Shown here piece after piece: positions 34,261 through 60,810 of a stretch of DNA of 64,000 nt. A model generated the notes under the pieces. It searched no databases. It was not told the origin of the DNA and worked only from the letters and a program-made list of their open reading frames with translations. Origin of the DNA: Planctomycetota bacterium. Its GTDB lineage: Bacteria; Planctomycetota; MHYJ01; WSZJ01. Numbering within the stretch: the first letter of the stretch is position 1; every line of letters starts with the position of its first letter. The DNA lies in NCBI GenBank assembly GCA_038060895.1, contig JBBTCT010000022.1, positions 1 through 64,000 of the forward strand, in the 5' to 3' direction. Both the position numbers and the translations under genes were made by a program.

Positions 34261-35028
34261 TTACGCTCCGCAGCCGCTGCTTTCGATTTCTTCGGGATCG
34301 TCCTCATCGACCGCCTGAGGTTCCGGCGGAATCGGGACCGGCTCCGCGCTGACCTGCCCTGGCGTCACGCCGAGGCGCTTCACGTCCGCTCTCAGGAGGG
34401 CTGCCAGAAGCGCTCCATACGCCTGATGCAGCGGGGAAGGCGCCTTCTTGGCGAGGATCTCGCCGAAGACGGGTCCCCACCGCCCGATGTGGTCCTTCAG
34501 GAACCCACGCGCGGCCTCAAGCGTCCGCTCGGCCCCTTCCGTCTCGCCGCGTTCCAGCGCCAGAAGCTGCTTCACCGCGAGGAAATGCACGAACTCGAGT
34601 TCCAGCCAGGCGTGATCGACGCGTTCCCCGGTGCCGGGCCGCACGCGCAGGCCGAAGGCGCCGTAGAAGGCCGAGACATCCGCGAGGTCCTGCGTCTCCT
34701 GGAACGGATGCGAACTGCCGTATCTCGTTTCGTGAGGCGGGAAGGTTTCAGAAATTGTGTGCCCGTACGTCATGACATGGAGGGACTCCAGCTGTTCGTC
34801 GGTCATATCGCGAAGCTCGCGGCCCACCGCCTCAACGGCGGCTTGCACATCCGCCGCCGCGGCGTCCTCCCACAGTTGCGACAGCGCCGCGCTCGGCAAC
34901 TCTTCTCGAAGGATCTCCGCCAGGCCGGGGCGCGGGTACGCGAAAACACGTGAGAGGAACCGGTAATACGCAGCACGGGCAAAAGCGAGGTCGGACTCCA
35001 GGGCGAGATGGGCGAGCGTGGCGGTCAT
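34261..35028 (-). CDS. TorD/DmsD-family molybdoenzyme chaperone (NxrD-like)
   Basis: PPHETRY, FYGAFGL, ERVDHAWLELEF, FLKDHIGRW. Last gene of the nxr-like operon. Confidence 0.88.
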   Translation of the reverse strand: MTATLAHLALESDLAFARAAYYRFLSRVFAYPRPGLAEILREELPSAALSQLWEDAAAADVQAAVEAVGRELRDMTDEQLESLHVMTYGHTISETFPPHETRYGSSHPFQETQDLADVSAFYGAFGLRVRPGTGERVDHAWLELEFVHFLAVKQLLALERGETEGAERTLEAARGFLKDHIGRWGPVFGEILAKKAPSPLHQAYGALLAALLRADVKRLGVTPGQVSAEPVPIPPEPQAVDEDDPEEIESSGCGA

Positions 35029-35078
35029 GGATGTCTCCCTCAGGGGTCAACCCCGGCCAGGAAAAGTCCCGGCCTGGT

Positions 35079-42964: not shown

Positions 42965-42983
42965 TACTTAATGCCATTAACTA
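42965..42983. promoter_or_regulatory. Palindromic operator, copy 1
   Basis: TACTTAA-TGCCA-TTAACTA in the nxr/cox divergent spacer. Confidence 0.75.
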
Positions 42984-43366: not shown

Positions 43367-44167
43367 ATGATCCGCATGTCCCAGCTTGCCCCTGCCGTCC
43401 TTTCCCTGGCGATCGCAATTCTGGCCTCCGGCTGCGGCGATTCGAGCAGCGAACCCGGCGCGGGCGAAGGCAAGCCGGCCGACGGCGCCGGGCAACCGAC
43501 CGGTCCGGAAGTGAAAGTAGACACCGCCACCGCAGGCACGATCTCAGGCGCCGTGAAATTCGAAGGAGCGGCCCCGACCGAGCGCGTCAACTCCGCCGAG
43601 GCAGACGCCTTCTGCCACTCGAAACACCCGGAAGGGATCAAGAGCGAATCGGCCGTCATCGGCGCCGGCGGAGAACTCGCCAACGTCTTCGTCTGGATCA
43701 AAAAGGGAATCACCGGCAAATTCCCGCTTCCGTCAGAACCCGCCGTGCTCACGCAGAGCGGCTGCCGCTACGAGCCGCATGTGCTGGGGCTCCGGAACGG
43801 ACAGGATCTCGTCGTCAAGAACGACGACGACACCATGCATAACGTCCACTCCCTGCCGAAGGCCAACGAGGAATTCAACTTCGCGCAGACGAAGAAGGGG
43901 GACGAAGCGCGGAAGAAGTTCTCTTCGCAGGAAGTGATGGTCAAGTTCAAGTGCGACGCGCACGGGTGGATGAGCTGCTACGTCGGCGTCGTCAATCACC
44001 CCTACTTCGCGGTCACCGCCGCTGACGGAAAATTCGAGCTCAAGAACGTGCCGCCCGGCGAGTACGAAGTCGAGGCGTGGCACGAGAAGTTCGGGAAGCA
44101 GTCCCTGAGCGCAAAGGTTGAGTCGAAGGGGACCGCCACTCTCACCTTCACCCTGAAGGAGAAATAG
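43367..44167 (+). CDS. Lipoprotein with cupredoxin-like type-1 copper site and carboxypeptidase-regulatory-like domain
   Basis: Lipobox ASGC, HNVH...CDAHGWM, HPYFAVT, VPPGEYEVEAWHE. Confidence 0.8.
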   Translation: MIRMSQLAPAVLSLAIAILASGCGDSSSEPGAGEGKPADGAGQPTGPEVKVDTATAGTISGAVKFEGAAPTERVNSAEADAFCHSKHPEGIKSESAVIGAGGELANVFVWIKKGITGKFPLPSEPAVLTQSGCRYEPHVLGLRNGQDLVVKNDDDTMHNVHSLPKANEEFNFAQTKKGDEARKKFSSQEVMVKFKCDAHGWMSCYVGVVNHPYFAVTAADGKFELKNVPPGEYEVEAWHEKFGKQSLSAKVESKGTATLTFTLKEK

Positions 44168-44171: not shown

Positions 44172-44993
44172 ATGCCCAACAAGCGCGGAGCGGTCTCGGC
44201 CTGGCTGCTGGCCTCGCTTCTGATCCTGTTCACGATCCTCACGGTGGGCGCGTTCTTCGTCCTGAAGTGGCGCCCGGACGTGGCGAGCGAGCACGGGAAA
44301 GGCGTGGACAAGATGATCCTGTACATCATCTTTGCCGCGGGGTTCATCTTCGTCGTCGGGCACCTCGTCCTCTCCGCTTTCCTTGTGAAATTCGGCGGCA
44401 AGAACGGGGCGACCTACAAACCGATGACGCACAGGGCCGAGATGCTCTTCACGATCGGCCCGGTCGTCTTCATGGTCGCGGTGTCGGAGCTGGGAGTCCT
44501 CGCGATCGGCGGACCGGTGTGGAACCAGGTGTACACCCACCAGTCCGGCGACCTCGTCGTCGAGATCACGGCCAAGCAGTACGAGTGGATCTCGCGGTAT
44601 CCGGGGAAGGACGGGAAGTTCGGCCGAAAGCGCCCGGACCTTTTCGACGACCAGGAGAATCCGCTCGGTCTCGACCCGAAGGACCCGGATGCGAAGGACG
44701 ACATCGTGATCCGCGGCGCCGTGTACCTGCCCGTGGGGAAGGGCGCCTGGTTCAACATCCAGTCGTGGGACGTCCTGCACAGCTTCAACGTCCCGGTGCT
44801 CCGCTCGAAGCAGGACGCCGTTCCCGGATTGACGACCCACACGAGGATTCTTCCGACCGTGATCGGGCGTTACGAGATCTCCTGCGCGGAAATCTGCGGG
44901 CCCGGCCACTACAAGATGCGCGGGTTCGTGAACGTGAAGTCGGAAGCGGATTTTTATAAGTGGCTGAAATCGCAGGTGGGCTGGTTCGAGTAA
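44172..44993 (+). CDS. coxB: Heme-copper oxidase subunit II (CuA)
   Basis: Two TMs, QYEWISRYPG, DVLHSF, KQDAVPG, CAEICGPGHYKM. Confidence 0.93.
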   Translation: MPNKRGAVSAWLLASLLILFTILTVGAFFVLKWRPDVASEHGKGVDKMILYIIFAAGFIFVVGHLVLSAFLVKFGGKNGATYKPMTHRAEMLFTIGPVVFMVAVSELGVLAIGGPVWNQVYTHQSGDLVVEITAKQYEWISRYPGKDGKFGRKRPDLFDDQENPLGLDPKDPDAKDDIVIRGAVYLPVGKGAWFNIQSWDVLHSFNVPVLRSKQDAVPGLTTHTRILPTVIGRYEISCAEICGPGHYKMRGFVNVKSEADFYKWLKSQVGWFE

Positions 44994-48323: not shown

Positions 48324-48574
48324 AGCGGCTCCTTCCCATTGCGCTGTGGCTGTTGCTGGCTCCGGCGGCGTGGGCGGGGAGCTGATGAAAAGGGGACGAC
48401 CCGGGTCCGGCGGACCTGGAACCGGCGCAGCGCTCGCGACTCGGGACGCTGATGCTGATGACGGTTCCCTACCCGCTCATGGCCGGGTTCATGGCGCTGG
48501 CGTGGTGGCAGCAGCGGAAGCGGCGCGCTGCCTCCGCAGAGACAATTTGCGTGGACGGTTCCGGGGACAAGTAG
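48320..48574 (+). CDS. Small membrane protein with tandem in-frame UGA-UGA (candidate selenoprotein or pseudogene)
   Basis: GTGA overlap with subunit IV. Reads VKRLLPIALWLLLAPAAWAGS**KGDDPG...GTLMLMTVPYPLMAGFMALAWWQQRKRR...DK-TAG. Hairpin at 48401-48419. Confidence 0.55.
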
Positions 48575-48590
48575 TAAAGTGCATTAACTA
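48572..48590. promoter_or_regulatory. Palindromic operator, copy 2
   Basis: TAGTAAA-GTGCA-TTAACTA immediately before the AGGAG RBS of 48606. Confidence 0.75.
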
Positions 48591-48605: not shown

Positions 48606-49004
48606 TTGCGCGTCGCCATTCCGGTCACGACAGGCCAGATTCCCAATCACCTGGGCCACTGCACCTCGTTTCTCTTCGCCGACGTGGAAGAGGGCCGCGT
48701 GCTGCGCGAAGAGCTCCTTCCCAATCCCGGCCACGGCCCCGGGGGCCCTCCGCCCGCCTTCCTGGCCCGCAGCGGCGTGACGCACCTGCTGGCTTGGGGA
48801 TGCCCGCCTCCCGCCCTTGAGATGTTCGACGAGGTCGGGATCAAAGTCGCGCTCGGCGCGACGGGGGACGCGAAGGCTGCCCTGCGCGCCTGGCTCGAAG
48901 GGACCCTGAAGCCCGTTTCCGATGGCCTGGACGCCGGAGGCGGGTGCGGCCCGAGCTCTTTGGATGAGGGAAAGGTGCGCGGAGGATGCGCCGGCGGCCA
49001 TTGA
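48606..49004 (+). CDS. NifB/NifX-like (FeMo-co biosynthesis domain) protein
   Basis: RVAIP...HLGHCTSF, NPGH, C-terminal GGC...CAGGH. TTG start with AGGAG. Confidence 0.82.
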   Translation: MRVAIPVTTGQIPNHLGHCTSFLFADVEEGRVLREELLPNPGHGPGGPPPAFLARSGVTHLLAWGCPPPALEMFDEVGIKVALGATGDAKAALRAWLEGTLKPVSDGLDAGGGCGPSSLDEGKVRGGCAGGH

Positions 49005-50724
49005 GTTTCTCAGCCGCGCCGGCTTCCTGCGCGTTGTCCCCACACCCGAGGAGATCGAAGCCCTGTCACCGAAGCGCCGGAAAAAAGTCCTCCTGACCAG
49101 CGTGTGCCGCCCCCTTGGGGAAAGCGCCGGGGACTCCCCGAGCGTAGGCTACGAACTCCTCCACTGCCAGGTCACCCGCGCCCAGGGCATCTTCAGCCCC
49201 CGGTCTCACCACATTCACTTCTCCCTCGAGTACATCGCGCAGAATCTCGAAGCGCCGACGGTGGTGCTTCAGTACCCGTCGAAGCGCGAACTGATCCGTG
49301 AGCTCAGGAAGGGCTATGACGTCGTCGGGGTGTCCTTCGTCATGCCGACTTTTCACCGGATGAAGGAGGTCGTCGCCCTCATTCGGGCGCACTCGCCCGA
49401 CGCGCAGATCGTTCTCGGCGGCTACGGAACTGTCCTCGGGGAGCAGGTCCTGCGGCCGTGGTGCGACCACATTTGCCGCGAGGAGGGCGTCGGGTTCATG
49501 CGCCGTCTCCTTGGCGAGACGGAGATTCCGCTTCCGTACGACCACCCGATGATCGTCAACCCGCTCCGGGTTTTCGGAAAGCAGGTCGGGCGGACGGGAA
49601 TCGTGTTCGGCGGGCTGGGTTGCCCGCACGGTTGCGATTTCTGCTGCACTTCTCATTTCTTCGCCCGCAAACACATTCGCCTTCTTCCCACCGGTGCGGA
49701 CATCTACGGCGTGATCCGGCGGTACCTCGACGTGGATCCGAACATGTCGATCCTCGTGATCGACGAGGATTTCCTCCTGAACCGCAAGAGGGCCATGGAA
49801 CTGCGCGAGTGCGTGCAGGCGGGCGGCGTTCCGCTGAGCATCTTCGTGTTCGCGAGCATCAAGGCGCTCACCCAGTACTCGGTGACGGAAATCATGGAAA
49901 TGGGAATCGACGGGATGTGGATCGGCTATGAAGGGACGCGCTCGGGGTACTCCAAGCAGCAGGGACGGCCCGTGGGGGATATCTTCCGCGAGTTTCGCGC
50001 GCATGGGATCAGCATCCTGGCGTCGATGATCGTCGGATTCCCCTACCAGACGCCGGAGATCATTGAGGAAGAGCTGACGGGGCTTCTCGATCTGCACCCT
50101 GACCTGGGGCAATTCCTGATCTACGGCCCGTCCCCCGGGACGCCGTTCTACGAATCCGTCAAAAAGCAGGGGCTGTTCCACCAGGAGTACGTCGATGACC
50201 CCGAGCTGTACTACAAAAAAGCCAGCGGCTTCTTCTCCATGGTCCGGCATCCGACGATGTCCGCCGGCCAGATCGAGGCCGAACAGAGACGTTGCTTCGA
50301 CGAGGACTTCCGCCGTCTCGGCCCTTCGATCTTTCGCGCGCTTGAAACCTGGCTTCTGGGCCATCTGAAGCTGAAAGACTCTCCCAGCGCCTACCTGCGC
50401 GCGAAGGCGGCCAGTTTCGCCGCGGACTTGCGCAGGTCCTACCCCGTCTTTCTCGCCGGCCGCCTGCTCGGCCCGAACCGGAAGGTCCGCCGCTGGATCG
50501 GCGAGCTGGAAGCGCGAATCCACGCCGCGCTGGGAAAGCCGACACTTCTGGAGCGCGTGCAATCCGTGGCGGCGATCGGTGCGGCGGCGTGGACGGGAAT
50601 CAAACTCAAGCTGGGGCTGTTCCAGCACGTGCCGCTGAAGCGCGGCGAGTGGCGGATGGAAGAGACCCGTCGGTCCCTGTCGGCGCCCTCACCCGAAGTC
50701 CGCGTCGCCGCAGGGACGCCCTAG
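48964..50724 (+). CDS. Cobalamin-binding radical SAM protein
   Basis: B12-type N-domain (DVVGVSF, IVLGGYG, GCPHGCDFC as the CxxxCxxC motif, IDEDF, IGYEG, PGTPFY). Start uncertain (48922 to about 49000). Confidence 0.85.
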   Translation: MRERCAEDAPAAIEFLSRAGFLRVVPTPEEIEALSPKRRKKVLLTSVCRPLGESAGDSPSVGYELLHCQVTRAQGIFSPRSHHIHFSLEYIAQNLEAPTVVLQYPSKRELIRELRKGYDVVGVSFVMPTFHRMKEVVALIRAHSPDAQIVLGGYGTVLGEQVLRPWCDHICREEGVGFMRRLLGETEIPLPYDHPMIVNPLRVFGKQVGRTGIVFGGLGCPHGCDFCCTSHFFARKHIRLLPTGADIYGVIRRYLDVDPNMSILVIDEDFLLNRKRAMELRECVQAGGVPLSIFVFASIKALTQYSVTEIMEMGIDGMWIGYEGTRSGYSKQQGRPVGDIFREFRAHGISILASMIVGFPYQTPEIIEEELTGLLDLHPDLGQFLIYGPSPGTPFYESVKKQGLFHQEYVDDPELYYKKASGFFSMVRHPTMSAGQIEAEQRRCFDEDFRRLGPSIFRALETWLLGHLKLKDSPSAYLRAKAASFAADLRRSYPVFLAGRLLGPNRKVRRWIGELEARIHAALGKPTLLERVQSVAAIGAAAWTGIKLKLGLFQHVPLKRGEWRMEETRRSLSAPSPEVRVAAGTP

Positions 50725-50870: not shown

Positions 50871-50886
50871 CGGGCACGCATTTGCA
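50871..50886 (+). promoter_or_regulatory. Possible sigma54 promoter of the oah operon
   Basis: CGGGCACGCATTTGCA (GG-N10-GC, atypical GGG). Predicted +1 near GTG 50897. Confidence 0.4.
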
Positions 50887-50896
50887 GGGTCTACGC

Positions 50897-51967
50897 GTGC
50901 CTCTTGAGGAGAATGACGTGAGAGACTTCGCGCCGCTGCCAGACGACACCCGCTTCCAGGACATCCTCTACGTGAAGTCGGACGGCGTGGCCACGGTCAC
51001 AATCAACCGTGCCGCCGCGCACAACTCCTACTCGACGCACTGCCTCGTCGAACTCGAGAGGGCGTTTACCGACGCTTCTCGGGACGACCGCGTCGCCGTC
51101 GTGGTCTTCACGGGCGCCGGAACCCGGGCGTTCTGTACGGGTGGAGACGTGAAGGAGTACGCGACGGAATACGTGAAGCGGCCGCGCGACTACTGGAAGT
51201 ACATGGGGTTGTTCCGGGCGTACATCGAATCGATCATGCACTGCGGCAAGCCGGTGATCGCCCGCATCAACGGCATGGCGGCCGGCGGCGGCAACGAATC
51301 GCAGCTCGCCTGCGACCTCGGAGTGATCGCAGAGCACGCCTGGGTCGGCCAGGTCGGCACCTCCGTCGGCTCCGTCGCCTGCGGCGGCGCCACGCAATGG
51401 CTGCCGCTGGTCGTGGGAGACCGTCGCGCCCGCGAGATGCTCCTGCTCAATCCGCGAATCCCCGCCCGCAAGGCGCTGGACTGGGGACTCGTCAACGCCG
51501 TCGTGCCCAGCGTCACGCACGAAGGGAAGTTCGTCGAGGGCGCTTCGGAAGAACAGATCCGTCTCGCCCAGGACGGGAAGGAAGGCTGGAGGATCGACCT
51601 GTCGCGGCTCGACCAGAAGGTGGCGGAGTACGTGAAGAGCCTGAAGGAGAAGTTTCCGGAGTGCCTGCGTTATACGAAGGCGCAGACGAACCAGAACAAG
51701 GAAGCGATCTGGCACGCGACGGTGTCTCATGCGCAGGAGTGGCTGGCGCTGCATTTCACCAGCCCGGAGCCGCAGGAGGGGATGAAGGCCTTCGCGGAGA
51801 AGCGGCCGGTGGACTGGGTTGGGGTCCGGTCCAAGTGGGCCGACGACCGGTCGCCCGAGTATGCGTGGGGAGCGCCGGGGGCGAAGTGCGGCCAGTGCGG
51901 GTCGAATTCCATGCCCGAGGGATTCTCCTTCTGCGGGAAGTGCGGCCATGAGCTCAAAGCCCGCTGA
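50897..51967 (+). CDS. oah: 6-oxocyclohex-1-ene-1-carbonyl-CoA hydrolase (Oah/BamA-like) with C-terminal zinc ribbon
   Basis: Crotonase fold: HNSY, AFCTGGDVKEY, GGGNESQLACDL, GSVACGGAT, FPECLRYTK, CGQC...CGKC. Context with dch and had. Confidence 0.8.
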   Translation: MPLEENDVRDFAPLPDDTRFQDILYVKSDGVATVTINRAAAHNSYSTHCLVELERAFTDASRDDRVAVVVFTGAGTRAFCTGGDVKEYATEYVKRPRDYWKYMGLFRAYIESIMHCGKPVIARINGMAAGGGNESQLACDLGVIAEHAWVGQVGTSVGSVACGGATQWLPLVVGDRRAREMLLLNPRIPARKALDWGLVNAVVPSVTHEGKFVEGASEEQIRLAQDGKEGWRIDLSRLDQKVAEYVKSLKEKFPECLRYTKAQTNQNKEAIWHATVSHAQEWLALHFTSPEPQEGMKAFAEKRPVDWVGVRSKWADDRSPEYAWGAPGAKCGQCGSNSMPEGFSFCGKCGHELKAR

Positions 51968-52646
51968 CCGCGGCGCGATCGTCACCGGCGGCGCTTCGGG
52001 AATCGGCGCCTGCGCCTCGAAAGCGCTCGAGAGCGAGGGCTACGTCGTCTGCCGCGTCGATCTCGCGGAGCCCGGGGACGTGCTGGGGGACGTGCGCGCC
52101 GAAGGGACGGCGCGGCGGGCGCTCGACTGGCTCCGGGAGAAGGGGACCGGACCGGACGTGCTGGTGAACTGCGCCGGGATCACGCGCGGCGCGGCGATGC
52201 CGAAGCTGACGCAGGAGGACTGGGATCTCGTCATCGGGGTGGACCTGACCGGGGCGTTCGTGTTCACGAAGGCGGTCTCGCCCGTGATGGCGGAGCGCGG
52301 CGGCGGCCGGATCGTGAACGTCGCTTCGACGCTTGCGCTGCGCGCGCGACGAGGGACGGCGGCGTACGCGGCGGCGAAGGCGGGGTTGCTCGGGTTCACG
52401 CGAGCCTGCGCGCGCGACCTCGGGCCGAAGAACATCAACGTCAACGCGGTTGCGCCGGGGCTCGTGCTGACGCGGTTGGCGGACGAGATCCCGGCGGAGA
52501 CGCGAGAGAAGCTGCTCGCGGAGACCGCGCTGGGCCGCTTTGCCACCCCGGAGGACGTCGCGGGAGTGATCGTCTTTCTCTGCTCGCCTGCTGCGCGCCA
52601 TGTCACGGGCGAAACCATCCGCGTCGATGGAGGACAACTCGCATGA
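51948..52646 (+). CDS. Short-chain dehydrogenase (FabG/BzdZ-like)
   Basis: TGGASGIG, VNCAG, YAAAK, VNAVAPG, VDGG. Confidence 0.9.
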   Translation: MSSKPADRGAIVTGGASGIGACASKALESEGYVVCRVDLAEPGDVLGDVRAEGTARRALDWLREKGTGPDVLVNCAGITRGAAMPKLTQEDWDLVIGVDLTGAFVFTKAVSPVMAERGGGRIVNVASTLALRARRGTAAYAAAKAGLLGFTRACARDLGPKNINVNAVAPGLVLTRLADEIPAETREKLLAETALGRFATPEDVAGVIVFLCSPAARHVTGETIRVDGGQLA

Positions 52647-53401
52647 GCCTGGTGACCGTCGTCCGGCAGGATCACATCGTGACCTGCTCGATTGGCAACC
52701 CGCCGCTCAACATCCTCACCTGCGCGGTCATGAACGAACTCTGCGCCGCCCTCCGGGAGACGCGGCCGGACGACCGCGTCATCGTCATCCGGGGAGCGGG
52801 AAAGCACTTTTGCGCTGGCGCCGACATTGCCGAGCACCTGCCGGAGAAGGGGCCCGCGATGCTCGAGACGCTCGGGAGGCTGTTCACCACGCTGAACGAC
52901 GTCCCCGTCCCCACGGTGGCCGTCGTGCGCGGAGCATGCATGGGCGCGGGGCTGGAGCTCGCCGCCGCCTGCGATTTCATCATCGCCGCGGAGGACGCAA
53001 AACTCGGCGTCCCGGAAATCTCGCTGGGCGTCGTCGCCCCGGTCGCCTCGGTCGACCTGCCGCGGAAAATCGGCGAAACGCGGGCCGCGGAACTTCTCTT
53101 CCTCGGCAAACCCATCTCCGGCCGGCAGGCGGGGGAGTGGGGCCTGGCCGTCGAGGTCGCGGTGGAAGCGGATCTCGACGCCCGCGCCGACATCCTGGCC
53201 GCGAAACTCGCGGCCCACTCCGGAGCAGCGCTTCGATCCACGAAGCGTTGCCTGCGCGCGGCGGGGGCAAGGCCTGTTCATGCGGACGCGCTTTCCGCGG
53301 CGCTTGGCATCTACAAGGCGGACGTCCTGCCGAGCGCGGACGGCCTGGAGGGGTTGAAGGCGTTCCTGGAGAAGCGGCAGGCCAAGTGGAGGGACCAGTG
53401 A
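52643..53401 (+). CDS. dch: Cyclohexa-1,5-diene-1-carbonyl-CoA hydratase (Dch-like)
   Basis: PPLNIL, HFCAGADIAEHLP, GLELAAACD, PEISLGVVAP, EGLKAFLEKR. Operon context. Confidence 0.8.
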   Translation: MSLVTVVRQDHIVTCSIGNPPLNILTCAVMNELCAALRETRPDDRVIVIRGAGKHFCAGADIAEHLPEKGPAMLETLGRLFTTLNDVPVPTVAVVRGACMGAGLELAAACDFIIAAEDAKLGVPEISLGVVAPVASVDLPRKIGETRAAELLFLGKPISGRQAGEWGLAVEVAVEADLDARADILAAKLAAHSGAALRSTKRCLRAAGARPVHADALSAALGIYKADVLPSADGLEGLKAFLEKRQAKWRDQ

Positions 53402-54423
53402 TGAAAGCGGCTGTCTACTATGCGGGCGCGAAAGGTCTCGAGATCAAGGACGTCCCGGTTCCCGAGCCGGCGCCCGGGGAAGCGCGGGTGAAGGTGGCCG
53501 CGTGCGGGCTCTGCCATACGGACCTGCACTATCTCGACCATGGCGTCCCGACGTTCAAGAAGCCGCCGATCATCCTGGGGCACGAGCCCGCGGGTCATGT
53601 GGACGCGCTGGGCGCCGGGGTGACGAACGTGAAGCCGGGCCAGGCCGTGCTCGTCCCGGCGGTTCTCACCTGCGGCGAGTGCACCCTCTGCCGGACGGGC
53701 CGGTCGAACATCTGCGAGCGGATGCAGATGCTCGGGAACCACATTGACGGAGCGTTCGCGGAGTTCGTGTGCGTCCGCGCGCGCGACCTGGTTCCGCTTC
53801 CCGCCGGGCTCGATCCCGTGGAAGCCTCGATCGTGGCCGACGCGGTGACGACGGCGTTTCACGCGGTCGTGCACAGGGCGCAGGTCCGGCCCGGCGAGAC
53901 GGTGGCGATTTTCGGGTGCGGCGGAGTGGGTCTGTCGGCGGTGCAGTTCGCGGCGCTGGCCGGCGCCTACGTCATCGCCGTGGATCTTGACCCGGCGAAA
54001 CTCCTGCTGGCGCGCCAGCTGGGCGCCGCCGACACGGTCGATGCGAAGGCGGATCCCGAGCCCGCGAAGACGATCAAGAAGAAGACTGGCGGCGGCGTGG
54101 ACAAGGCGATGGAGTGCATCGGCAGCCCGAAAGTCATCCCCGTGGCGCACAACTCCGTCCGCGCCGGGGGCCGGCTGGTCATCGTCGGGTTCGCCGACAA
54201 GCCGGTCGAACTCAATGCGGGGAAGATCATGTTCATGGAGCAGGAGGTCATCGGGTCCCTCGGTTGCCGGCCCGTGGATTTCCCGCGGGTCCTCGAAATG
54301 TGCGCCTCCGGCCGCTACAAGCTTGCTCCGCTCGTGACCTCGAGGCGCCCGCTCGAGCGCGTGAACGAAGCGCTGGACGAATTGAGAGCGGGAAAGAGCG
54401 TGAGAAGCGTCGTCATCCCCTGA
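53401..54423 (+). CDS. had: 6-hydroxycyclohex-1-ene-1-carbonyl-CoA dehydrogenase (Had-like, Zn-ADH)
   Basis: CGLCHTDL, GHE, VPAVLTCGECTLC, GNHIDG, VADAVTT, GCGGVG, GSLGC. Operon context. Confidence 0.8.
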   Translation: MKAAVYYAGAKGLEIKDVPVPEPAPGEARVKVAACGLCHTDLHYLDHGVPTFKKPPIILGHEPAGHVDALGAGVTNVKPGQAVLVPAVLTCGECTLCRTGRSNICERMQMLGNHIDGAFAEFVCVRARDLVPLPAGLDPVEASIVADAVTTAFHAVVHRAQVRPGETVAIFGCGGVGLSAVQFAALAGAYVIAVDLDPAKLLLARQLGAADTVDAKADPEPAKTIKKKTGGGVDKAMECIGSPKVIPVAHNSVRAGGRLVIVGFADKPVELNAGKIMFMEQEVIGSLGCRPVDFPRVLEMCASGRYKLAPLVTSRRPLERVNEALDELRAGKSVRSVVIP

Positions 54424-55132
54424 GAGCCCGCGCCCGGCCCGCGGATCCGCCCGACCTCCTGATTTCCCTCGTTGCGGGCCTGGAACGGCCGTACGTCTTG
54501 AATTTTGCGAGCAGTTCCGCGACGTCCGGCTCCGCCAGGATCACCGGCGAACCCGCCGACAGCGCGGCAAGGAACATCGCCGCCAGCACTTCCAGTTGCT
54601 GCGCCCACCTCAACGCCTCTTCCACGGTTTCACCGATGGCCACGATCCCGTGATTCGACATCAGGCAGGCTCTCCGGTCCTCCAGAGCCTGCACCGAAGC
54701 CCGGGCGAGCGCCTCCGTGCCGTACGGGGCGTACGGAGCGCAACGGATGTCGGCGCCGCCGAACATGGGCACGGAGTAATGGAACGCGGGAATGGCAAGG
54801 CGAAGGCACGCGACGGCCGAGGCATGAAGCGGGTGGGCATGAACGATTCCTTCCACGTCCGGCCGGGCCTCATAGATGGCCCGGTGGAGCCGCCACTCGG
54901 TTGAAGGCTCAGCTCCGTCATGCCAGGCGCCGGCGAGGGAAACCCGGGAAAGGCTCCCGGGGGCGACTTCGTCGTACGGCACCGCCGTCGGCGTGATCAC
55001 GAACATCCCCGGATCCTCGAGGCGCGCGGAGACGTTCCCGGAGGTTCCGTGGTTGATGCCGGAACGGTTCATCTCCAGGGCCGCTTCGACGACGCGGGTG
55101 CGGATGGTTCGGCCGGCTGACGGCGGGATCAC
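54413..55132 (-). CDS. Class II aldolase/adducin family protein (FucA-like)
   Basis: GTSGNVS, ITPT, PSTEWRLH, IVHAH, IPAFHY, NHG. Start uncertain (GTG 55132). Confidence 0.88.
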   Translation of the reverse strand: MIPPSAGRTIRTRVVEAALEMNRSGINHGTSGNVSARLEDPGMFVITPTAVPYDEVAPGSLSRVSLAGAWHDGAEPSTEWRLHRAIYEARPDVEGIVHAHPLHASAVACLRLAIPAFHYSVPMFGGADIRCAPYAPYGTEALARASVQALEDRRACLMSNHGIVAIGETVEEALRWAQQLEVLAAMFLAALSAGSPVILAEPDVAELLAKFKTYGRSRPATREIRRSGGSAGRARALRG

Positions 55133-55146
55133 GGATGCACGATATA

Positions 55147-55165
55147 TAGTAAATGCCATTAAATA
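55147..55165. promoter_or_regulatory. Palindromic operator, copy 3
   Basis: TAGTAAA-TGCCA-TTAAATA between the divergent aldolase and DUF1800 genes. Confidence 0.72.
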
Positions 55166-55224
55166 AATGGAAACCTTCGGGGCCCAGCCGGGTTTCCATC
55201 CCGGACGCCCTTCGGAGAACCCCG

Positions 55225-56712
55225 ATGCCCAATCCCCTCGCCCCGGTCACTACCTCTTCGTGGGACCGCTCCCGCGCCCGTCACCTCCTCAACCGCGCCG
55301 GTTTCGGGATCCCGCTTCATGAGGTAGATCGCCTCGCCGCCATGTCCCCTGAGGCCGCGGTCGCCCGCTTCGTCGAATTTGAGGCGCGCCCCGACTGGTT
55401 CCAGCCCCCCGACTTCCTCCCGGCACCGTTTGATTTCGCCGCAAAGCGCCGCGAAGTCGCCGGCCTCACCGAAGAAGAACGCAAGGATCTCTTCAAGGAA
55501 CGCATGCGCGAGGAACACCAGGCAATGGCGCAACTCCAGGACTGGTGGCTCGACCAGATGCTCACCACGCTTCAGCCCCTCCAGGCCAAGCTCACCCTGT
55601 TCTGGCACGGCCACTTCGCCACGTCCGCCCAGAAAGTAAAGTCCTGCCGCAACAACTGGCAGCTCTTCCAGGTGTTCCGCGAAAAGGCTGCAGGGAGTTT
55701 CCGGGAACTGGTCCGCAGCGTCGGGAAGTCGCCCGCCATGCTCGAGTACCTCGACAACGAGAAGAACAAGAAGGGGCACCCGAACGAGAACTGGGCCCGC
55801 GAGCTGATGGAGCTGTTCACGATGGGGCGCGGGAACTACACGGAGGACGACATCAAGGAAGCGGCGCGCGCATTCACGGGGTGGATGCGCGTCGGCGAGA
55901 AGTTCTGGTTCAACGCGCACGCGCACGACGACGGCGTGAAGACGGTCCTGGGCCGGAAGGGCGACTTCGACGGCGACCAGGTTGTGGACATCGTCGTGGA
56001 GAACCCCGCCACGGCGAAGTTCGTGGCGAAGAAGATGTGGGAGTTCTTCGCGTACGAGGAGCCCGAGACTGAGGTCGTCGAAGGGCTCGCGCGTGTTTTC
56101 ACGGAGGCGAAATTCGAGCTCAAGCCGCTTCTCCGGGCGATGTTTCTCTCGGAGGCGTTCTACTCGCCGCGCTCCGTTGGGAACCAGGTCAAGAGCCCGG
56201 TGCAGCTGGTGCTCGGGCTTCTGGACGGCCTGGACGTCCCGCTGGCGCTGGAGTCGGGGCGGTTCGCGCGGCTCATCCTGACCGGGCTGGGGCAGGATCT
56301 GTTCCACCCGCCGAACGTGAAGGGGTGGCCGGGGAACCGCGCGTGGATCGACACGAACACGCTGCTGCTGCGCTGCAACGCGGCGGGAATTCTCGTCAAC
56401 GGGCTCGACCCGGAAGACATGGCGGGAGGCGAGGGGGAGGGGGCGCGCCGGCGCGGGTTGCCGCGGCGGATCCGGTCGCCGTTCGAGGCGATGAAGTGGG
56501 CGGGGCGGCGGATGGCAGGGGCGAAGACGGCGGAGGAGGCGGCGGACCGTGTGACGGAGATCCTGCTGGGCCGCAGGCCGACGGCAGAGCAGCGCACCGT
56601 GCTGGCGCGCGCGCTGGGCGCCGGGACGGGGCAGGCCTGGAAAGCGAACGAGGATGGGGTGCGCGCGGTCGTGCACCTCGTGACGTCGATGGCGGAATAC
56701 CAACTCTGTTAG
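55225..56712 (+). CDS. DUF1800 family protein
   Basis: HLLNRAGFG, LFWHGHFATS, AMLEYLD, PNENWARELMELFTMG, AARAFTGW, PPNVKGW, EYQL. Confidence 0.92.
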   Translation: MPNPLAPVTTSSWDRSRARHLLNRAGFGIPLHEVDRLAAMSPEAAVARFVEFEARPDWFQPPDFLPAPFDFAAKRREVAGLTEEERKDLFKERMREEHQAMAQLQDWWLDQMLTTLQPLQAKLTLFWHGHFATSAQKVKSCRNNWQLFQVFREKAAGSFRELVRSVGKSPAMLEYLDNEKNKKGHPNENWARELMELFTMGRGNYTEDDIKEAARAFTGWMRVGEKFWFNAHAHDDGVKTVLGRKGDFDGDQVVDIVVENPATAKFVAKKMWEFFAYEEPETEVVEGLARVFTEAKFELKPLLRAMFLSEAFYSPRSVGNQVKSPVQLVLGLLDGLDVPLALESGRFARLILTGLGQDLFHPPNVKGWPGNRAWIDTNTLLLRCNAAGILVNGLDPEDMAGGEGEGARRRGLPRRIRSPFEAMKWAGRRMAGAKTAEEAADRVTEILLGRRPTAEQRTVLARALGAGTGQAWKANEDGVRAVVHLVTSMAEYQLC

Positions 56713-56713
56713 C

Positions 56714-56772
56714 GCCCTTCGACTCGCCCTTCGGGCTCGACCACTCTGAGCGAGCGGAGCGAGTCGAAGGGC
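56714..56772. repeat. REP-like palindrome
   Basis: Perfect 14-bp arms GCCCTTCGACTCGC / GCGAGTCGAAGGGC. Confidence 0.7.
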
Positions 56773-56785
56773 TCAGGAGGTTTTG

Positions 56786-58015
56786 ATGTCCACGAACAAC
56801 GTCGTCTTCACCCGTCGCGAGTTCATGCGGACGTCGGCTGTCGTCAGCGCGGGGCTGACGCTTCCCGCATTCCTCACCGGATGGCGTGGCCTCGCGCAGG
56901 CTGAGGAACCCGGCGCGGGCGGGCGCATCCTCGTCGTCCTGCAGTTGGGAGGCGGCAATGACGGGCTGAACACGCTCGTCCCGTACACGGACGACGCCTA
57001 CCGCCGCGCGCGGCCGACGCTCGGTCTGGCGAAGGAGCGCGTGCTCGACATCGACGGCCGCTTCGGCTTCAACGATTCGCTCGCGGCTATTAAAGGCCTC
57101 TTCGACGACGGGAAAGTCGCCGTCGTCCACGGCGTCGGCTACCCCAACCCCGACCGGTCACACTTCCGCTCCATGGACATCTGGCACACCGCCTCTGACT
57201 CGGACCGCTACGAGACGACGGGCTGGCTCGGGAGGTACTTCCACAACTGCTGCGGCGGGAAGCCGGACCCCGTGACCGGGGTGAATGTGGGGGCGAAGAT
57301 GCCGATGGCGTTTGCGGGAAGCGACGTGGGGGTCTCCTTCACGAACCCGGCGTGGTTCCGGTGGCTGCCGGGGGACGGGGCGGACACGGAGAAGGCGTAC
57401 CGGGAGCTGAACGCGGGGAAGGGTGAGGGGACGCTCGACTACCTGCGGTCGGTTTCGGCGAGCGTGGTGGCGACTTCGGACAAGGTGCAGGCGGTGGCGC
57501 GGAAGCGGCGCGCGGCGGGGGAGTATCCGCAGAGCCGGTTCGCGGACGACCTGAAGACGGTCGCGAACATGATCCTGGGTGGGCTGCCGGCGCGGGTTTA
57601 CTACGTGTCGATGACGGGGTTCGACACGCACGCGGGGCAGGCGGGGACGCAGGATCGGCTGCTGAAGGAGTTCGCGGAGGGGGTGAAGGCGTTCCACGGC
57701 GACCTGGCGAAGGCCGGGGCTGCGGAGCGCGTGCTGATGATGAGCTTCAGCGAATTCGGCCGCCGGGTGGAGCAGAACGCCAGCGGCGGAACCGATCACG
57801 GGACGGCGGGGCCGATGTTCGTGATCGGGGAAGGGGCGTTGCCGGGGCTCAAGGGGACGCCGCCGAAGCTGACGGACCTGGAGCAGGGGGACCTGAAGCA
57901 CACGGCGGACTTCCGCGCGGTGTACGGCGAGGTCGTGTCGCGGTGGCTCGGGGGGGACGCGAAGCAGGTGCTCGGGCGCGACCTGCAGCCCCTGGGGGTC
58001 GTGCGGGCGGTGTAA
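56786..58015 (+). CDS. DUF1501 family protein, Tat signal
   Basis: TRREFM, QLGGGNDGLN, RSHFRS, GWLGR, FDTH, SEFGRR, GTDHG, DFR. Confidence 0.92.
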   Translation: MSTNNVVFTRREFMRTSAVVSAGLTLPAFLTGWRGLAQAEEPGAGGRILVVLQLGGGNDGLNTLVPYTDDAYRRARPTLGLAKERVLDIDGRFGFNDSLAAIKGLFDDGKVAVVHGVGYPNPDRSHFRSMDIWHTASDSDRYETTGWLGRYFHNCCGGKPDPVTGVNVGAKMPMAFAGSDVGVSFTNPAWFRWLPGDGADTEKAYRELNAGKGEGTLDYLRSVSASVVATSDKVQAVARKRRAAGEYPQSRFADDLKTVANMILGGLPARVYYVSMTGFDTHAGQAGTQDRLLKEFAEGVKAFHGDLAKAGAAERVLMMSFSEFGRRVEQNASGGTDHGTAGPMFVIGEGALPGLKGTPPKLTDLEQGDLKHTADFRAVYGEVVSRWLGGDAKQVLGRDLQPLGVVRAV

Positions 58016-58056: not shown

Positions 58057-58075
58057 TAGTTAATCACCTTAACTA
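58057..58075. promoter_or_regulatory. Palindromic operator, copy 4 (perfect arms)
   Basis: TAGTTAA-TCACC-TTAACTA, about 50 nt before the Nod-like gene. Confidence 0.8.
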
Positions 58076-58123: not shown

Positions 58124-60535
58124 ATGAACATCGCCCGATGGCTTGACCGCCGCGAATCCTGGTGGAAGGTCTTCGTCGTCATCTTCGCAGTCAGCGTCAC
58201 CGTCGTCGGCTACATCGGGTACAAGACCTACCAGTACGCCCCGCCGGTCTGCGACTTCGTGGACGAGTCCGGCAAGACCGTCTTCTCCGGCGCCGACATC
58301 ACCGCGGGCCAGAAGGTCTTCCTCCGCTACGGCCTCATGGAATACGGCTCCTTCCTCGGCGACGGCGCCATGCGCGGGCCCGACTTCACCGCGGAGGCGC
58401 TTCACCAGACCGCCCTCTCCATGAACGCGCAGTACGACGCCGAGTGGAGCGTCCGTATCCCCGACCTGGTGCAGCGCAAGGCGATCGTCGAAGCGCTCGT
58501 GCAGAAGGACATCAAGGAGAACCGCTTCAAGGACGGCAAAGTCACGGTGAACGCGGCGCAGGCGGCGGCGTTTGAGCGCCTGCGGCTGTATTACTCGCAG
58601 AAATTCGGGGCCGGCGGCGAACTGGCGGGGAAGGAAGTCTTCAAACCGGAGAACTACATCACCGACCAGGAGAAAATCCGGCACCTCACGGCGTTTTTCT
58701 ACTGGGGAGGCTGGCTCTGCTCTGCCAAACGCCCCGGCTACGAGTACAGCTACACGCACAACTGGCCGTACGACCCGCTGGCGGGGAACGTCCCGCACGG
58801 CGGTCTCGTGATGTGGAGCGTGATCGGAACGCTGGTCGTGATCCTGACGATCGGCGTGATCTTCTACTACTACGGGCGAATGGACCGGGAAGCGGTGCTC
58901 GAGCAGCAGAAGGCGCACCTGCCGCCGCTCGCGACGTCGGATGTGGTGGACCGGTTCAAGCCGACGCCGACGCAGCGCGCGACCTACAAGTTCTTCGCGG
59001 TGGCCGCGCTCCTGTTCCTTTTCCAGGTCACTGCGGGCCTGCTCGCGATCTCGGATTTCGTGAATCTCGTGAGCTGGTTCGGGTTCGACCTGCGGGCGGC
59101 GATCCCCGTCACGATTTCGCGCATGTGGCACTCGCAGTTCTCGGTCCTGTGGATCGCGGTCTGCTGGTTCGCGGCGACGATCTGGGTGATGCCGCTCATC
59201 TGCCGCCCCGAACCTCGCGGCCAGCTCGGCTCGATCAACCTGCTTTTCGCCATGCTGGCGACCGTCGCGGCCGGCGCCATCTTCGGCATTCCCCTCGGCA
59301 TCCACGGCAAGCTCGACTACGGCGACGCGTGGCGCTGGTTCGGCCTGCAGGGCTGGGAGTTCATGCAGATCGGACGAGCGTTCCAGGCCGTGCTCTACTC
59401 GTCCTTCGTCCTCTGGCTCGTGATCATCACCCGCGGCGTCTGGCCCGCGCTCAAGCAGAAGCAGACCTGGTCGCTCCCCAACTGGATGGTCTACTCGATC
59501 GCCGGCATCATTTTCATGTTCAGCGCGTCGTGGGTCGCCAGCCCGGACACCAACTTCGTCATCGCCGACTTCTGGCGCTGGTGCACGATCCACATGTGGG
59601 TCGAAGCGTTCTTCGAGTTGTTTACGACGATCATCGTCGCCTACTTCCTCTACCTCATGGGGTTCGTGTCGCACCTCGTCGCGGCGCGCGTCGTGTACCT
59701 GTCGGCCGTGCTGTTCCTCGGAAGCGGCATGATCGGGATTTCGCACAACTTCTACTGGAACGCGAAGTCGATTGAGACGATCGCGCTCGGCGGCGTCCTC
59801 TCGTCGCTCCAGGTCGCGCCGCTCGTCCTGCTCACGATCGAGGCGTGGCGCTTCCGCCACCTTCCGCAGCACTCGCTCCGCGGCTCCACCCAGACGTTCG
59901 GCCTCGGGGAAGCCTTCCTCTTCCTCGTCGGCGTCAACTTCTGGAACTTCCTCGGCGCCGGCGTGATGGGATTCATGATCAACCTGCCGATCGTGAACTA
60001 CTACCAGCACGGGACGTACCTCACCGTCAACCACGGCCACGCCGCCCTCATGGGCGTCTACGGCAACCTAGCCGTCGCCGCCATGCTCTTCTGCTCCCGC
60101 TGGAACGTCGGCCCGTCTCGCTGGAACGCGAAGCTCCTGCGCACGTCGTTCTGGTCGCTCAACGCCGGCCTCATGTTCATGGTCGTCTTCGATCTCTTCC
60201 CGGTCGGCATCCACCAGCTCGCCGCGGCCATGAACCATGGCTACGCCTACGCGCGCTCGCAGGAGTACCTGTCCGGCACCGTCTTCCAGACCCTGACCTG
60301 GCTCCGTGGCATCGGCGTCGCGGTCTTCGTCACCGGCGGGGTCCTCCCGCTCACGTGGTTCATGGTCACTCGCTGGTTCAACCTCAAGCCGCCCCAGACG
60401 CGCGAAGAGCAGTTCATCGTGCCGCCCTCCGTCCTCGCCGTCTCCAGCCCGAGCGTCCTTACCGCCCGCGGCGTGCCGGACCGGGAGCCCGAAGGCGCCG
60501 GCTTGCTGCGCGACCCGGGGAAGGATCCGCTGTGA
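58124..60535 (+). CDS. nod: qNOR paralog with NO dismutase (Nod)-type substitutions
   Basis: qNOR scaffold (GSFLGDGAMRGPDFTAEALH, SYTHNWPYDP, QGWEF, HMWVE, NHGHAA) with ISHNFYW (HH to HN), SSLQV (E to Q) and no quinol-site His/Asp. Confidence 0.82.
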   Translation: MNIARWLDRRESWWKVFVVIFAVSVTVVGYIGYKTYQYAPPVCDFVDESGKTVFSGADITAGQKVFLRYGLMEYGSFLGDGAMRGPDFTAEALHQTALSMNAQYDAEWSVRIPDLVQRKAIVEALVQKDIKENRFKDGKVTVNAAQAAAFERLRLYYSQKFGAGGELAGKEVFKPENYITDQEKIRHLTAFFYWGGWLCSAKRPGYEYSYTHNWPYDPLAGNVPHGGLVMWSVIGTLVVILTIGVIFYYYGRMDREAVLEQQKAHLPPLATSDVVDRFKPTPTQRATYKFFAVAALLFLFQVTAGLLAISDFVNLVSWFGFDLRAAIPVTISRMWHSQFSVLWIAVCWFAATIWVMPLICRPEPRGQLGSINLLFAMLATVAAGAIFGIPLGIHGKLDYGDAWRWFGLQGWEFMQIGRAFQAVLYSSFVLWLVIITRGVWPALKQKQTWSLPNWMVYSIAGIIFMFSASWVASPDTNFVIADFWRWCTIHMWVEAFFELFTTIIVAYFLYLMGFVSHLVAARVVYLSAVLFLGSGMIGISHNFYWNAKSIETIALGGVLSSLQVAPLVLLTIEAWRFRHLPQHSLRGSTQTFGLGEAFLFLVGVNFWNFLGAGVMGFMINLPIVNYYQHGTYLTVNHGHAALMGVYGNLAVAAMLFCSRWNVGPSRWNAKLLRTSFWSLNAGLMFMVVFDLFPVGIHQLAAAMNHGYAYARSQEYLSGTVFQTLTWLRGIGVAVFVTGGVLPLTWFMVTRWFNLKPPQTREEQFIVPPSVLAVSSPSVLTARGVPDREPEGAGLLRDPGKDPL

Positions 60536-60810
60536 AATGGTTTCCCTTCGGGCCCGCGGCGCAAGAGCCGGCGAAGAAACTCCCGGTCATCGACCGCGGT
60601 CTGTGCACGGGCTGCGGCCTGTGCCTCGCCGCCTGCACGAACGGCTGCCTCGCATTTTCGTGGAGCCTCGCCGACCTGAAGCGGCCCGAGTGCTGCACGA
60701 GCGAAGGGCATTGCGCGGCCGCCTGTCCCGATGGGTTCATCGAGATGAAGTGGGTCGCCGCAAAAGGGGAGCGCGGTATTGGTGAGTGGAGCGAAGGGGG
60801 AGTCGCATGA
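60532..60810 (+). CDS. Small dicluster ferredoxin
   Basis: CTGCGLCLAAC and CCTSEGHCAAACP. GTGA overlap with the Nod-like gene. Confidence 0.82.
   Translation: MKWFPFGPAAQEPAKKLPVIDRGLCTGCGLCLAACTNGCLAFSWSLADLKRPECCTSEGHCAAACPDGFIEMKWVAAKGERGIGEWSEGGVA

Follow-up and report, generated by a model that had tools for sequence, protein, structure and literature searches.

Introduction

Candidatus Methylomirabilis oxyfera and strain HdN1 combine a nitrite reductase with O2-dependent monooxygenases that use the oxygen ascribed to nitric oxide dismutase (Nod), an enzyme that would convert 2 NO to N2 and O2. Here we describe a nod-like gene of a planctomycete and the genes that appear to share an operator with it, among them a nitrite oxidoreductase (NXR) operon and a cytochrome oxidase (cox) operon. 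They lie in a stretch of 64,000 nucleotides (GenBank assembly GCA_038060895.1, contig JBBTCT010000022.1, positions 1 to 64,000), hereafter the window, which lies at the start of contig C22 (462 kb) in a planctomycete metagenome-assembled genome (MAG) of 5.4 Mb, 66% GC and 86.5% completeness (G000). The closest relatives of this genome are Planctomycetota/Planctomycetia from groundwater-type samples.

The marks of Nod are given by Ettwig et al. 2012 (PMC3413370) as a His→Asn exchange at the FeB site, a nearby Glu→Gln exchange, described there without a residue number, and a missing quinol site. Schmitz et al. (PMC10286720) list His560→Asn and the quinol residues His328, Glu332 and Phe336 as marks of Nod versus qNor. 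A ‘Planctomycetia-type Nod’, which is OTU I of Fuchsman et al. 2017, is named in bioRxiv 10.1101/2023.11.21.568154, and PMC11828985 reports Nod genes in Planctomycetota UBA1135 and Scalinduaceae MAGs. For NXR the nearest descriptions are the enzyme of Kuenenia stuttgartiensis (PDB 7B04) and, in PMC10732223, non-anammox Planctomycetota MAGs in which NXR occurs alongside cox, hao-like and hzs-like genes and without nirK or nirS.

The protein encoded in the window has the same qNor architecture and substitutions as the Planctomycetia-type Nod; beyond it, one operator is common to the window's nod, nxr, cox and a cassette resembling hydrazine synthase (HZS), and this nod lies near a dedicated candidate regulator. 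The same three marks, and terminal oxidases in the same organism, are recorded for M. oxyfera and HdN1 in PMC3413370; unlike those organisms, the window's genome yielded neither nirS nor nirK, and it is an oxidase that would be the consumer of O2. The NXR is like that of Kuenenia in its NxrA orthologue, Tat signal and NxrC-like haem-b subunit, and its genomic company is like that in the PMC10732223 MAGs. What sets it apart from both is the fusion of NxrC with a kustc0457-like dihaem cytochrome c, a divergent oxidase that lacks the K-pathway residues (K-less) and the island operator. The ‘norB’ of at least two of these MAGs, OFTM77 and OFTM248 (loci L044 and L039), carries Nod marks.

Earlier publications cover planctomycete Nod as well as NXR of the Kuenenia type in non-anammox Planctomycetota. 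The common operator, a MarR-family regulator with four cysteines, the K-less oxidase with nxr and the operator before the HZS-like cassette appear to be new; we found no paper on the operator, the four-cysteine MarR or the pairing of a K-less oxidase with nxr, in a literature search that was not aimed at regulators or K-less oxidases. We tentatively favour reading the island as a nitrogen-oxide/low-oxygen response regulon that has nod as its core target and is governed by the four-cysteine MarR, with NXR and the oxidase co-induced. We do not read it as a proven pathway from nitrate to N2 plus O2.

Results

A palindrome upstream of nod, nxr and cox

A preliminary description of the window, made from the sequence alone, had pointed to a periplasmic NXR/NAR-like operon, an atypical A-family oxidase, an enzyme with the Nod signature and a 19-bp palindrome lying both in the nxr/cox spacer and before nod. 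All of these proved to be real, and the palindrome has more copies than had been noticed. Reading frames were chosen by third-position GC and named using Pfam, NCBIfam and the PDB.

The palindrome is a 9-1-9 dyad with the consensus TAGTTAATG-N-CATTAACTA. Searching the window with TASTTAANNNNNTTAACTA and allowing up to three mismatches gave four sites (eight strand matches) against 0.09 expected from shuffled sequence. With up to two mismatches the whole genome held five sites, all on C22 between positions 42965 and 96669, that is, the four window copies and one at 96669. A position weight matrix (PWM) scan placed 8 of its 10 best matches within 42-113 kb of the contig, with the main sites scoring 30-35 bits, and the strong copies sit in spacers 16-155 nt 5′ of a start codon. 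Copy 1 (TACTTAATGCCATTAACTA, 42965..42983, 33.1 bits) occupies the divergent nxr/cox spacer, and copy 2 (TAGTAAAGTGCATTAACTA, 48572..48590, 30.3 bits) lies 16 nt 5′ of a NifX-like gene and has an orthologous site in L001/G005. Copy 3 (TAGTAAATGCCATTAAATA, 55147..55165, 33.0 bits) is found in the interval between an aldolase gene and a DUF1800 gene, with orthologous sites in L001 and L003. Copy 4 (TAGTTAATCACCTTAACTA, 58057..58075) precedes the nod start codon by 49 nt, and L001, L003, L041 and L024 likewise have a site before nod. The fifth strong copy, at contig position 96669, is 70 nt 5′ of the HZS-like gene and recurs in the sister species G005. Weaker copies precede the MarR gene (73177), an indolepyruvate:ferredoxin-oxidoreductase-like gene (94795) and a second DUF1800/DUF1501 pair (112786).

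We compared the sequence upstream of nod in 42 relatives' loci (L012 and L037 were excluded, their matches being cut or distant). Four of them, L001, L003, L041 and L024, had a strong site (26-34 bits) 33-77 nt before nod; the remaining 38 had none. The genus comprises eight genomes (81-94% complete) within a GTDB order of 12 species genomes; nod was found in five of the eight, the window's and the four just named, so that the operator stands before nod in 5/5. Across the eight genomes the pattern gave 25 sites versus 1 for the reversed control. On the nxr side, operators were found in G010 (33 bits; nod was not found there), in G006 and, weaker, in G005. Outside the genus, the candidates for variant operators in distant nod genomes were weak and unconvincing dyads (13.0 bits in L029, 10.1 bits in L004), and a generic search of such genomes for AT-rich 9-1-9 dyads found none.

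The alternative that the palindromes are AT-rich promoter cores or relics of mobile repeats, and that the genes are not co-regulated, draws on the fact that the sites are the AT-richest spots in GC-rich spacers and could hold −10-like hexamers. We regard it as extremely unlikely: the dyad is strictly 9-1-9, its position before the start codon is conserved across species whose Nod proteins are 72-96% identical, no further copies with up to two mismatches exist in the genome, the reversed control matched once against 25 times, and repeats of the mobile-element type were not noticed flanking the sites in the contexts inspected. Given that the operator is common to them, co-regulation of nod, nxr and cox is implied, and these genes are likely to be switched on together.

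The gene order itself is reproduced elsewhere. In an independent assembly of the sister species G005, a single contig of 43 kb (C235) carries MarR, nod, cox and nxrA in this same order, which argues against a chimeric contig, the possibility the preliminary description had left for checking. The distance from nxrA to cox1 is 5-6.6 kb, on one contig, in G000, G005, G010 and G011, and nod shares a contig with the MarR gene in G000, G005, G008 and G011. Among the 12 genomes of the order, Nod of at least 75% identity is present in six (with no more than 33-38% fragments in a seventh), high-identity NxrA in 11 and K-less CoxI of at least 65% identity in nine. Two metatranscriptome runs of an aquifer study (X13 and X14) contain short contigs identical to parts of the nod, cox, nxr, Usp and efflux-pump genes at depths of 2-4; the pattern resembles that of DNA runs of the same study, DNA carry-over is possible, and Logan contigs give no levels.

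The Nod-like enzyme

The nod gene (58124..60535, plus strand) encodes an 803-aa Planctomycetia-type putative nitric oxide dismutase of the qNor family. Its domains are an N-terminal haem-free cytochrome-c-like region (PF22085, 158.9 bits) and a PF00115 core (139.7 bits), and residues 16-761 align with the qNOR of G. stearothermophilus (3AYF) at 472 bits. All three Nod marks are present. At the FeB site His560 is replaced by Asn (‘SHNFYW’ versus ‘GHHYYY’ in 3AYF), with His508, Glu512 and His559 retained; Glu581 near the catalytic centre has become Gln (581 being our own count in 3AYF); and the quinol-binding residues are lost (His328→Ser, Glu332→Asn and Phe336→Trp). A further exchange relative to 3AYF converts to Val the residue that we take to be Asp746 of qNOR. 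The 803-aa protein is hence a qNor relative with the published sequence marks of Nod, for which dismutation is the putative activity.

Retrieval of nod loci used a pattern containing HNFYW and gave 80, of which 74 provided full-length rows; because of this pattern the presence of the signature in 74/74 rows is biased. In a tree of these 74 homologues from species genomes, which was built without the Nod of M. oxyfera, the Nod of HdN1 or a true qNor, the window protein falls within a 40-member clade (SH-aLRT 100, stem 0.79) whose sequences, 64-96% identical, come from Scalindua, further Planctomycetota and Verrucomicrobiota. This clade matches what the literature names Planctomycetia-type Nod. 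A check for canonical nor showed nod to be the only qNor/cNor-type gene in the genome, and it is one of three haem-copper oxidase genes there. The searches turned up no further enzyme for NO handling.

The nxr operon

The nxr operon runs on the minus strand in the order dihaem cytochrome c-NxrC fusion, HExxH gene, NxrA, a 90-aa open reading frame (ORF), NxrB and chaperone. NxrA (36724-40164), a periplasmic molybdopterin subunit of the Kuenenia/Nitrospira type, matches Kuenenia NXR-A (7B04_B) with 1773 bits; the alignment spans 1145 residues, from 82 to 1226 in the ORF as listed. Its true start is probably M82, where a Tat motif (RRDFLK) is found; the Pfam TAT_signal score of 19.9 is under the cut-off of 22.7. 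NxrB (35079-36353) is an iron-sulfur subunit recognised by Fer4_11 and related domains, with 259.6 bits to TIGR03478 (cut-off 480.7), and the NarJ/TorD-type chaperone (34261-35028) matches PF02613 with 58.3 bits and TIGR03482, below its cut-off, with 66.7 bits. The operon's haem-b subunit is part of a fusion protein (41149-42810, start at 42810 inferred) that carries a lipoprotein-like signal, Pfam EB_dh and two cytochrome c domains; its kustc0457-like part (residues 126-347) matches 6H5L_B with 184.8 bits and its NxrC-like part (405-621) matches 7B04_C with 107.5 bits. The operon thus has both an NxrB iron-sulfur and an NxrC haem-b subunit, the latter fused to a dihaem cytochrome c. Between the fusion gene and nxrA, an open frame of about 330 aa (40154-41148, minus strand) has an HExxH motif, a Cys-rich C-terminus and no Pfam match; its DNA is 75-86% identical to that of G005, G010 and G011. 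By sequence, the operon is closely orthologous to that of Kuenenia and encodes an NXR of the periplasmic anammox/Nitrospira type.

A search of the genome with NxrA as query matched this NXR as the only nitrate/nitrite-type molybdoenzyme. A second NxrA paralogue, 40-41% identical to that of the window, occurs in G006, G007, G008, G010 and G011; in the genome of the window it did not turn up.

The divergent oxidase

The oxidase operon (43367-48385, plus strand) diverges from nxr and encodes, in order, a CarboxypepD_reg-like beta-sandwich protein (43367..44167; PF13620, 36.7 bits), CoxII (44172..44993; PF00116), CoxI (45116..46861; PF00115, 442 bits) and CoxIII (47428..48048; PF00510, 59.4 bits). 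CoxII has a CuA site, its C-x-E-x-C-x3-H-x2-M motif aligning with 1QLE_B, and because of this CuA the oxidase is expected to take electrons from cytochrome c. CoxI scores 562.1 bits against NCBIfam CtaD, under the cut-off of 670.75. Like aa3-type A-family oxidases it retains the CuB and haem histidines, the cross-link tyrosine of GHPEVY and the D-pathway residues (Asp/Glu), and subunit III is present. Unlike them it has ‘PFAILG’ in place of ‘P(T/S)G(I/V)K’ in the K-pathway stretch (‘APFAILGVN’ versus ‘VPTGIKFFN’), so that Thr is replaced by Phe and Lys by Leu.

The loss of the K-pathway Thr and Lys is seen in all five CoxI proteins of the genus that were examined (the window, G005, G008, G010 and G011). 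The nearest representative at 50%-identity clustering, 52% identical to the window's CoxI, keeps the lysine, as do 76 of 80 metagenome relatives at 44-59% identity; one of these relatives, L110 (a 2.2-kb contig), has the K-less motif of the window's CoxI. NxrA was found in the flanks of none of these 80 loci, in a scan that reached only the 44-59% relatives. A second oxidase in the window's genome (contig C27) is of the A2 type and keeps ‘PSGVK’; cbb3-type and bd oxidases were not found in this genome.

NXR and the oxidase could also be read as a nitrite-oxidising branch, in which the fused dihaem cytochrome c hands electrons from NXR on to the divergent oxidase and Nod acts as a safety valve for NO or as an anoxic supplier of O2. 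NxrA's closest solved relative is indeed the nitrite-oxidising NXR of Kuenenia, nxrA and cox1 stay close together in the four genomes named above, G010 has the operator in its nxr/cox spacer with nod not found there, and the CuA site means that the oxidase draws on cytochrome c. PMC10732223 likewise proposes nitrite oxidation for planctomycete MAGs with the same NXR type and oxygen reductases; the direction of NXR is not assignable from sequence there either, and the same holds for the window. We consider this reading unlikely. The markers of autotrophy that were searched for did not turn up in the genome: CODH/ACS was not found, there were no signs of the Calvin-Benson-Bassham or Wood-Ljungdahl pathways, and the single RuBisCO-family match was rejected as a RuBisCO-like protein (RLP type) below all cut-offs. 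Furthermore, normal aa3-type turnover is doubtful because the K-pathway lysine is lost.

A candidate regulator

The candidate regulator lies on the same contig beyond the window (72546-73103) and belongs to the MarR family (PF01047, 35.1 bits; cut-off 24.6). It heads an operon that also encodes two BcrC/BcrB-like proteins and one activase. Its C-terminal tail carries a C-x2-C-x7-C-x8-C motif whose four cysteines (Cys155, Cys158, Cys166 and Cys175) are invariant in 18/18 aligned members, and the tail has no match in Pfam or NCBIfam. In a collection of 5.8 billion proteins its homologues form 26 clusters, and the source names shown are all planctomycete. The MarR promoter holds a conserved variant of the 9-1-9 dyad overlapping TTGACT in 4/4 genomes compared (the window's and three relatives), and such a self-site fits autoregulation. 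Furthermore, the nod genomes without a strong MarR homologue (G013 and G014) have no operator, and those with a diverged homologue (G015 and G001) have only weak dyads. Collectively these observations suggest that the four-cysteine MarR is the likely binder of the palindrome. Two Rrf2 (NsrR-type) regulators in the genome (C1 and C32) were considered as the binder and set aside; neither has an operator-like site nearby in the PWM list.

NsrR (Rrf2 family) and FNR are iron-sulfur regulators that sense NO or O2, and BadR is a MarR-type regulator of anaerobic aromatic catabolism. The window system is like all three in its predicted dimeric winged-helix regulator, its palindrome before genes for NO handling and anaerobic respiration, and its possible cluster cysteines. 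It is unlike NsrR and FNR in that the fold is MarR (PF01047) rather than Rrf2 or CRP/FNR, and its 9-1-9 dyad is unlike the 5-4-5 box of FNR.

The resemblance to BadR raises the alternative that the MarR is an aryl-CoA sensor and that the palindrome controls reductase-like and ring-processing genes together with NXR, Nod and the oxidase. The products of the MarR operon have their best matches in Thauera-type BcrB (319.5 bits) and BcrC (293.5 bits) alongside the activase, the island contains 4-hydroxybenzoyl-CoA-reductase-like, indolepyruvate:ferredoxin oxidoreductase-like and ADP-forming acyl-CoA synthetase genes, and a crotonase - short-chain dehydrogenase (SDR) - crotonase module behind operator copy 2 keeps its synteny with nod in L001, L003 and L041. 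This module (50882..53401, plus strand; crotonases of 361 and 252 aa) had been taken in the preliminary description for anaerobic aromatic ring-opening genes, an identification that we could not uphold: the best NCBIfam scores of the two crotonase-fold proteins and the SDR are far under the family cut-offs (Oah 201.9 of 464.45 bits, BadI 160.3 of 467.6, Dch 163 of 292.5). The reductase-like operon fares similarly, with no score over its cut-off (486.55 for BcrB, 421.15 for BcrC and, for BcrA, 212.1 of 578 bits), so that the best matches to the benzoyl-CoA pathway reach 35-70% of the curated values. Class I benzoyl-CoA reductases have two ATPase genes, and only one is present here. In addition, nod is the most conserved operator target and the site of the reductase operon is weak (17.4 bits versus 30-35). 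Control by aromatic acids therefore appears distinctly improbable to us.

Sources of NO and gaps in the pathway

The preliminary description had proposed oxygenic denitrification for this locus in a host that is probably not an anammox bacterium. Within the genus we found no known NO-forming nitrite reductase, the eight genomes giving neither nirS nor nirK and only weak propeller matches. Among the 12 genomes of the order, NirK was over its cut-off in none and NirS appeared only in G001, which belongs to another family; Cytochrom_D1 was unmatched in the window's genome at its 86.5% completeness. The sole match to the NirK model in this genome, on contig C9 (48.8 bits), was rejected as a Met-rich multicopper oxidase of the copper-resistance type beside a TolC-like gene. 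NrfA gave a single 19.9-bit match in the genome, and Hcp was found in 0/8 genomes of the genus. The NosZ model PF18764 had no match, but it was silent in control genomes as well. No oxygenase turned up near the locus, although no search was aimed at oxygenases.

An HAO-family octahaem protein of 530 aa, single in the genome, is encoded directly 3′ of a cytochrome b (subunit IV-like) gene (C24, 36534-37100; L092). A Rieske/cytochrome b-HAO arrangement is known from anammox bacteria, and the C24 pair resembles it. The protein scores 151 bits to the multihaem protein 4QO5 versus 54.5 bits to hydrazine dehydrogenase (HDH, 6HIF), and at most it may be a candidate source of NO. The HZS-like cassette begins with a 976-aa protein at contig position 96757 that has a weak likeness to the beta/gamma subunits of hydrazine synthase (5C2V_B, E 1.1e-9; 5C2V_C, E 3.3e-4). 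Next come a 1348-aa protein whose middle domain is of the HZS-alpha kind and then Rnf-type genes; HZS_alpha domain scores in the genome are 22.8-28.7 bits. With HZS-like genes that are only distant and an HAO-family gene nearer to 4QO5 than to HDH, the view of the host as non-anammox is upheld.

Full oxygenic denitrification in one cell would have NXR act as a nitrate reductase, nitrite converted to NO, Nod turn 2 NO into N2 + O2 and the oxidase respire the O2. Besides the three Nod marks, this scheme can call on the operator that, both in the window's genome and in G005, joins nod with nxr and cox, on the FNT nitrite channel and mobB within the window, and on NXR as the sole nitrate/nitrite molybdoenzyme matched with the NxrA query. 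Thermogutta, of the same NXR clade, is cited as a nitrate reducer in PMC10732223, and the C24 octahaem protein could act as an NO-forming nitrite reductase. We nevertheless hold the scheme to be doubtful. nirS and nirK were found in none of the eight genomes of the genus. The HAO-family gene belongs to a different contig, the PWM list shows no operator close to it, and its best solved relative is 4QO5. The Nod clade of the window, for which dismutation is putative, is separated by a long branch (0.79) from the remaining groups with the signature; nod and nxr/cox are unlinked in G011; and the apparent regulon includes enzymes of oxygen-sensitive types (radical SAM, benzoyl-CoA-reductase-like and indolepyruvate:ferredoxin oxidoreductase-like). 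Of the original proposal, the gene identities, the common operator and the non-anammox host have stood, and the step from nitrite to NO lacks a known enzyme and the nod-nxr linkage does not extend to G011. A pathway from nitrate to N2 plus O2 is hence only partly supported here.

A very unlikely variant would make the island a system for nitrite disproportionation in one cell (5 NO2− + 2 H+ → N2 + 3 NO3− + H2O) under an NO-sensing four-cysteine MarR, with NXR oxidising nitrite, the HAO-family protein or the co-regulated HZS-like cassette using some of these electrons to make NO from more nitrite, Nod forming N2 + O2 and the K-less oxidase, supplied by the cytochrome fused to NXR, burning the O2.

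Neighbouring genes

Downstream of operator copy 2 on the plus strand are the NifX/NifB-like (Nitro_FeMo-Co) small protein (48606..49004; PF02579, 51.3 bits) and a B12-binding radical SAM enzyme (48922..50724; PF02310, PF04055), followed by the crotonase module. A class II aldolase (54413..55159, minus strand; PF00596, 176 bits) diverges from a DUF1800 + DUF1501 (Tat-type) pair (55153..58015, plus strand; PF08811, 388 bits and PF07394, 79.7 bits) that lies 5′ of nod. A Ser/Thr protein kinase (61028..62356, plus strand; PF00069) follows nod on its 3′ side, and such a kinase is found about 0.5-1 kb downstream of nod in many loci (L001, L003, L041, L015, L004, L005, L033 and others). In the flanks of the 80 nod loci a Ser/Thr kinase homologue occurs in 18, DUF1800 in 26 and DUF1501 in 25; this recurrence may be due to chance, because the three families are expanded in planctomycetes. 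The second DUF1800/DUF1501 pair (contig 109718-112731), with the weak operator-like site at 112786 and then a Ser/Thr kinase-TPR gene (to 115716; locus L096), mirrors the DUF1800-DUF1501-nod-kinase layout of the window. Also in the island is a DUF2249-cupin fusion (contig 84442-85146; L082, 442-1146) between hydantoinase-like and acyl-CoA synthetase genes.

Upstream of nxr, positions 26645-34132 hold a run of sensory and stress genes that looks to be of the hypoxia/NO type, with no operator copies before them. The run comprises a globin-coupled histidine kinase (26645..27856, plus strand; PF11563, 134.4 bits), three tandem-Usp genes (27860-31597; Usp domains), mobB for molybdopterin-guanine dinucleotide synthesis protein B (31575..32282, plus strand; PF03205, 97.7 bits, cut-off 26.6; with a P-loop) and a GAF-PAS histidine kinase that adjoins the nxr operon (32312..34132, minus strand; GAF_2, PAS, HisKA and HATPase_c). 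An FNT (formate/nitrite) channel (5654..6502, plus strand; PF01226, 259.5 bits) is encoded beside a sigma-54 response regulator (4196-5644). The channel, mobB and the globin kinase had been named from the start, and their Pfam matches agree. Between them, positions 6767-26253 contain two heavy-metal efflux sets (an outer-membrane factor, HlyD/CusB-like proteins with HMBD domains and two RND pumps), as well as a P-type ATPase, a YHS-domain protein and a dihaem cytochrome c (18954-20303). An Rfam scan of positions 30000-64000 returned zero family matches.

Discussion

We propose, tentatively, that the island responds to nitrogen oxides or low oxygen. In this model the four-cysteine MarR would bind the palindrome, with its cysteines holding a metal or an iron-sulfur sensor, and the switching signal would probably be NO or the loss of oxygen. 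The Nod-type enzyme would then remove NO, and NXR would exchange electrons with the pool of c-type cytochromes through the fused dihaem cytochrome c. The co-induced oxidase, fed by cytochrome c via CuA, would consume O2, either traces of it or that released by Nod. Candidate sources of the NO would be non-canonical, for example the HAO-family octahaem protein on C24, or neighbouring cells.

Several observations weigh against this model. The MarR gene is present in 8/8 genomes of the genus versus five for nod, and aromatic acyl-CoAs are a frequent signal for MarR regulators encoded next to benzoyl-CoA-reductase-like genes, which would point away from NO. An AlphaFold model of the regulator has a core of pLDDT 85-94 and a Cys-rich tail of pLDDT 32-68, which lends no structural support to a cluster. 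We infer the link between regulator and operator from their neighbourhood, the self-site and co-occurrence within one genus, and this link is phylogenetically confounded. In G011 nod and nxr/cox occupy separate contigs, and the nxr/cox region has no operator of at least 12 bits by PWM; the nod-nxr link is for these reasons not a fixed module. The site on the HZS side was not found in G008, G010 or G011 with up to three mismatches, so that membership of the regulon shifts, and a sigma-70 consensus scan around the nod and nxr/cox operators recognised no promoter.

Nod has so far been inferred from physiology and sequence, and the candidate regulator opens the role of its abundant planctomycete version to study. 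Through the conserved operator nod is linked with a candidate sensor-regulator; in this genome the link extends to NXR, a special oxidase and the HZS-like cassette, and the island provides a defined gene set for tracking in groundwater metatranscriptomes. If the oxidase and NXR truly work with Nod, the island would give a genetic handle on anoxic nitrite oxidation and ‘dark oxygen’ in aquifers; otherwise, it would still give a new regulator family and a K-less A-family oxidase that travels with nxr.

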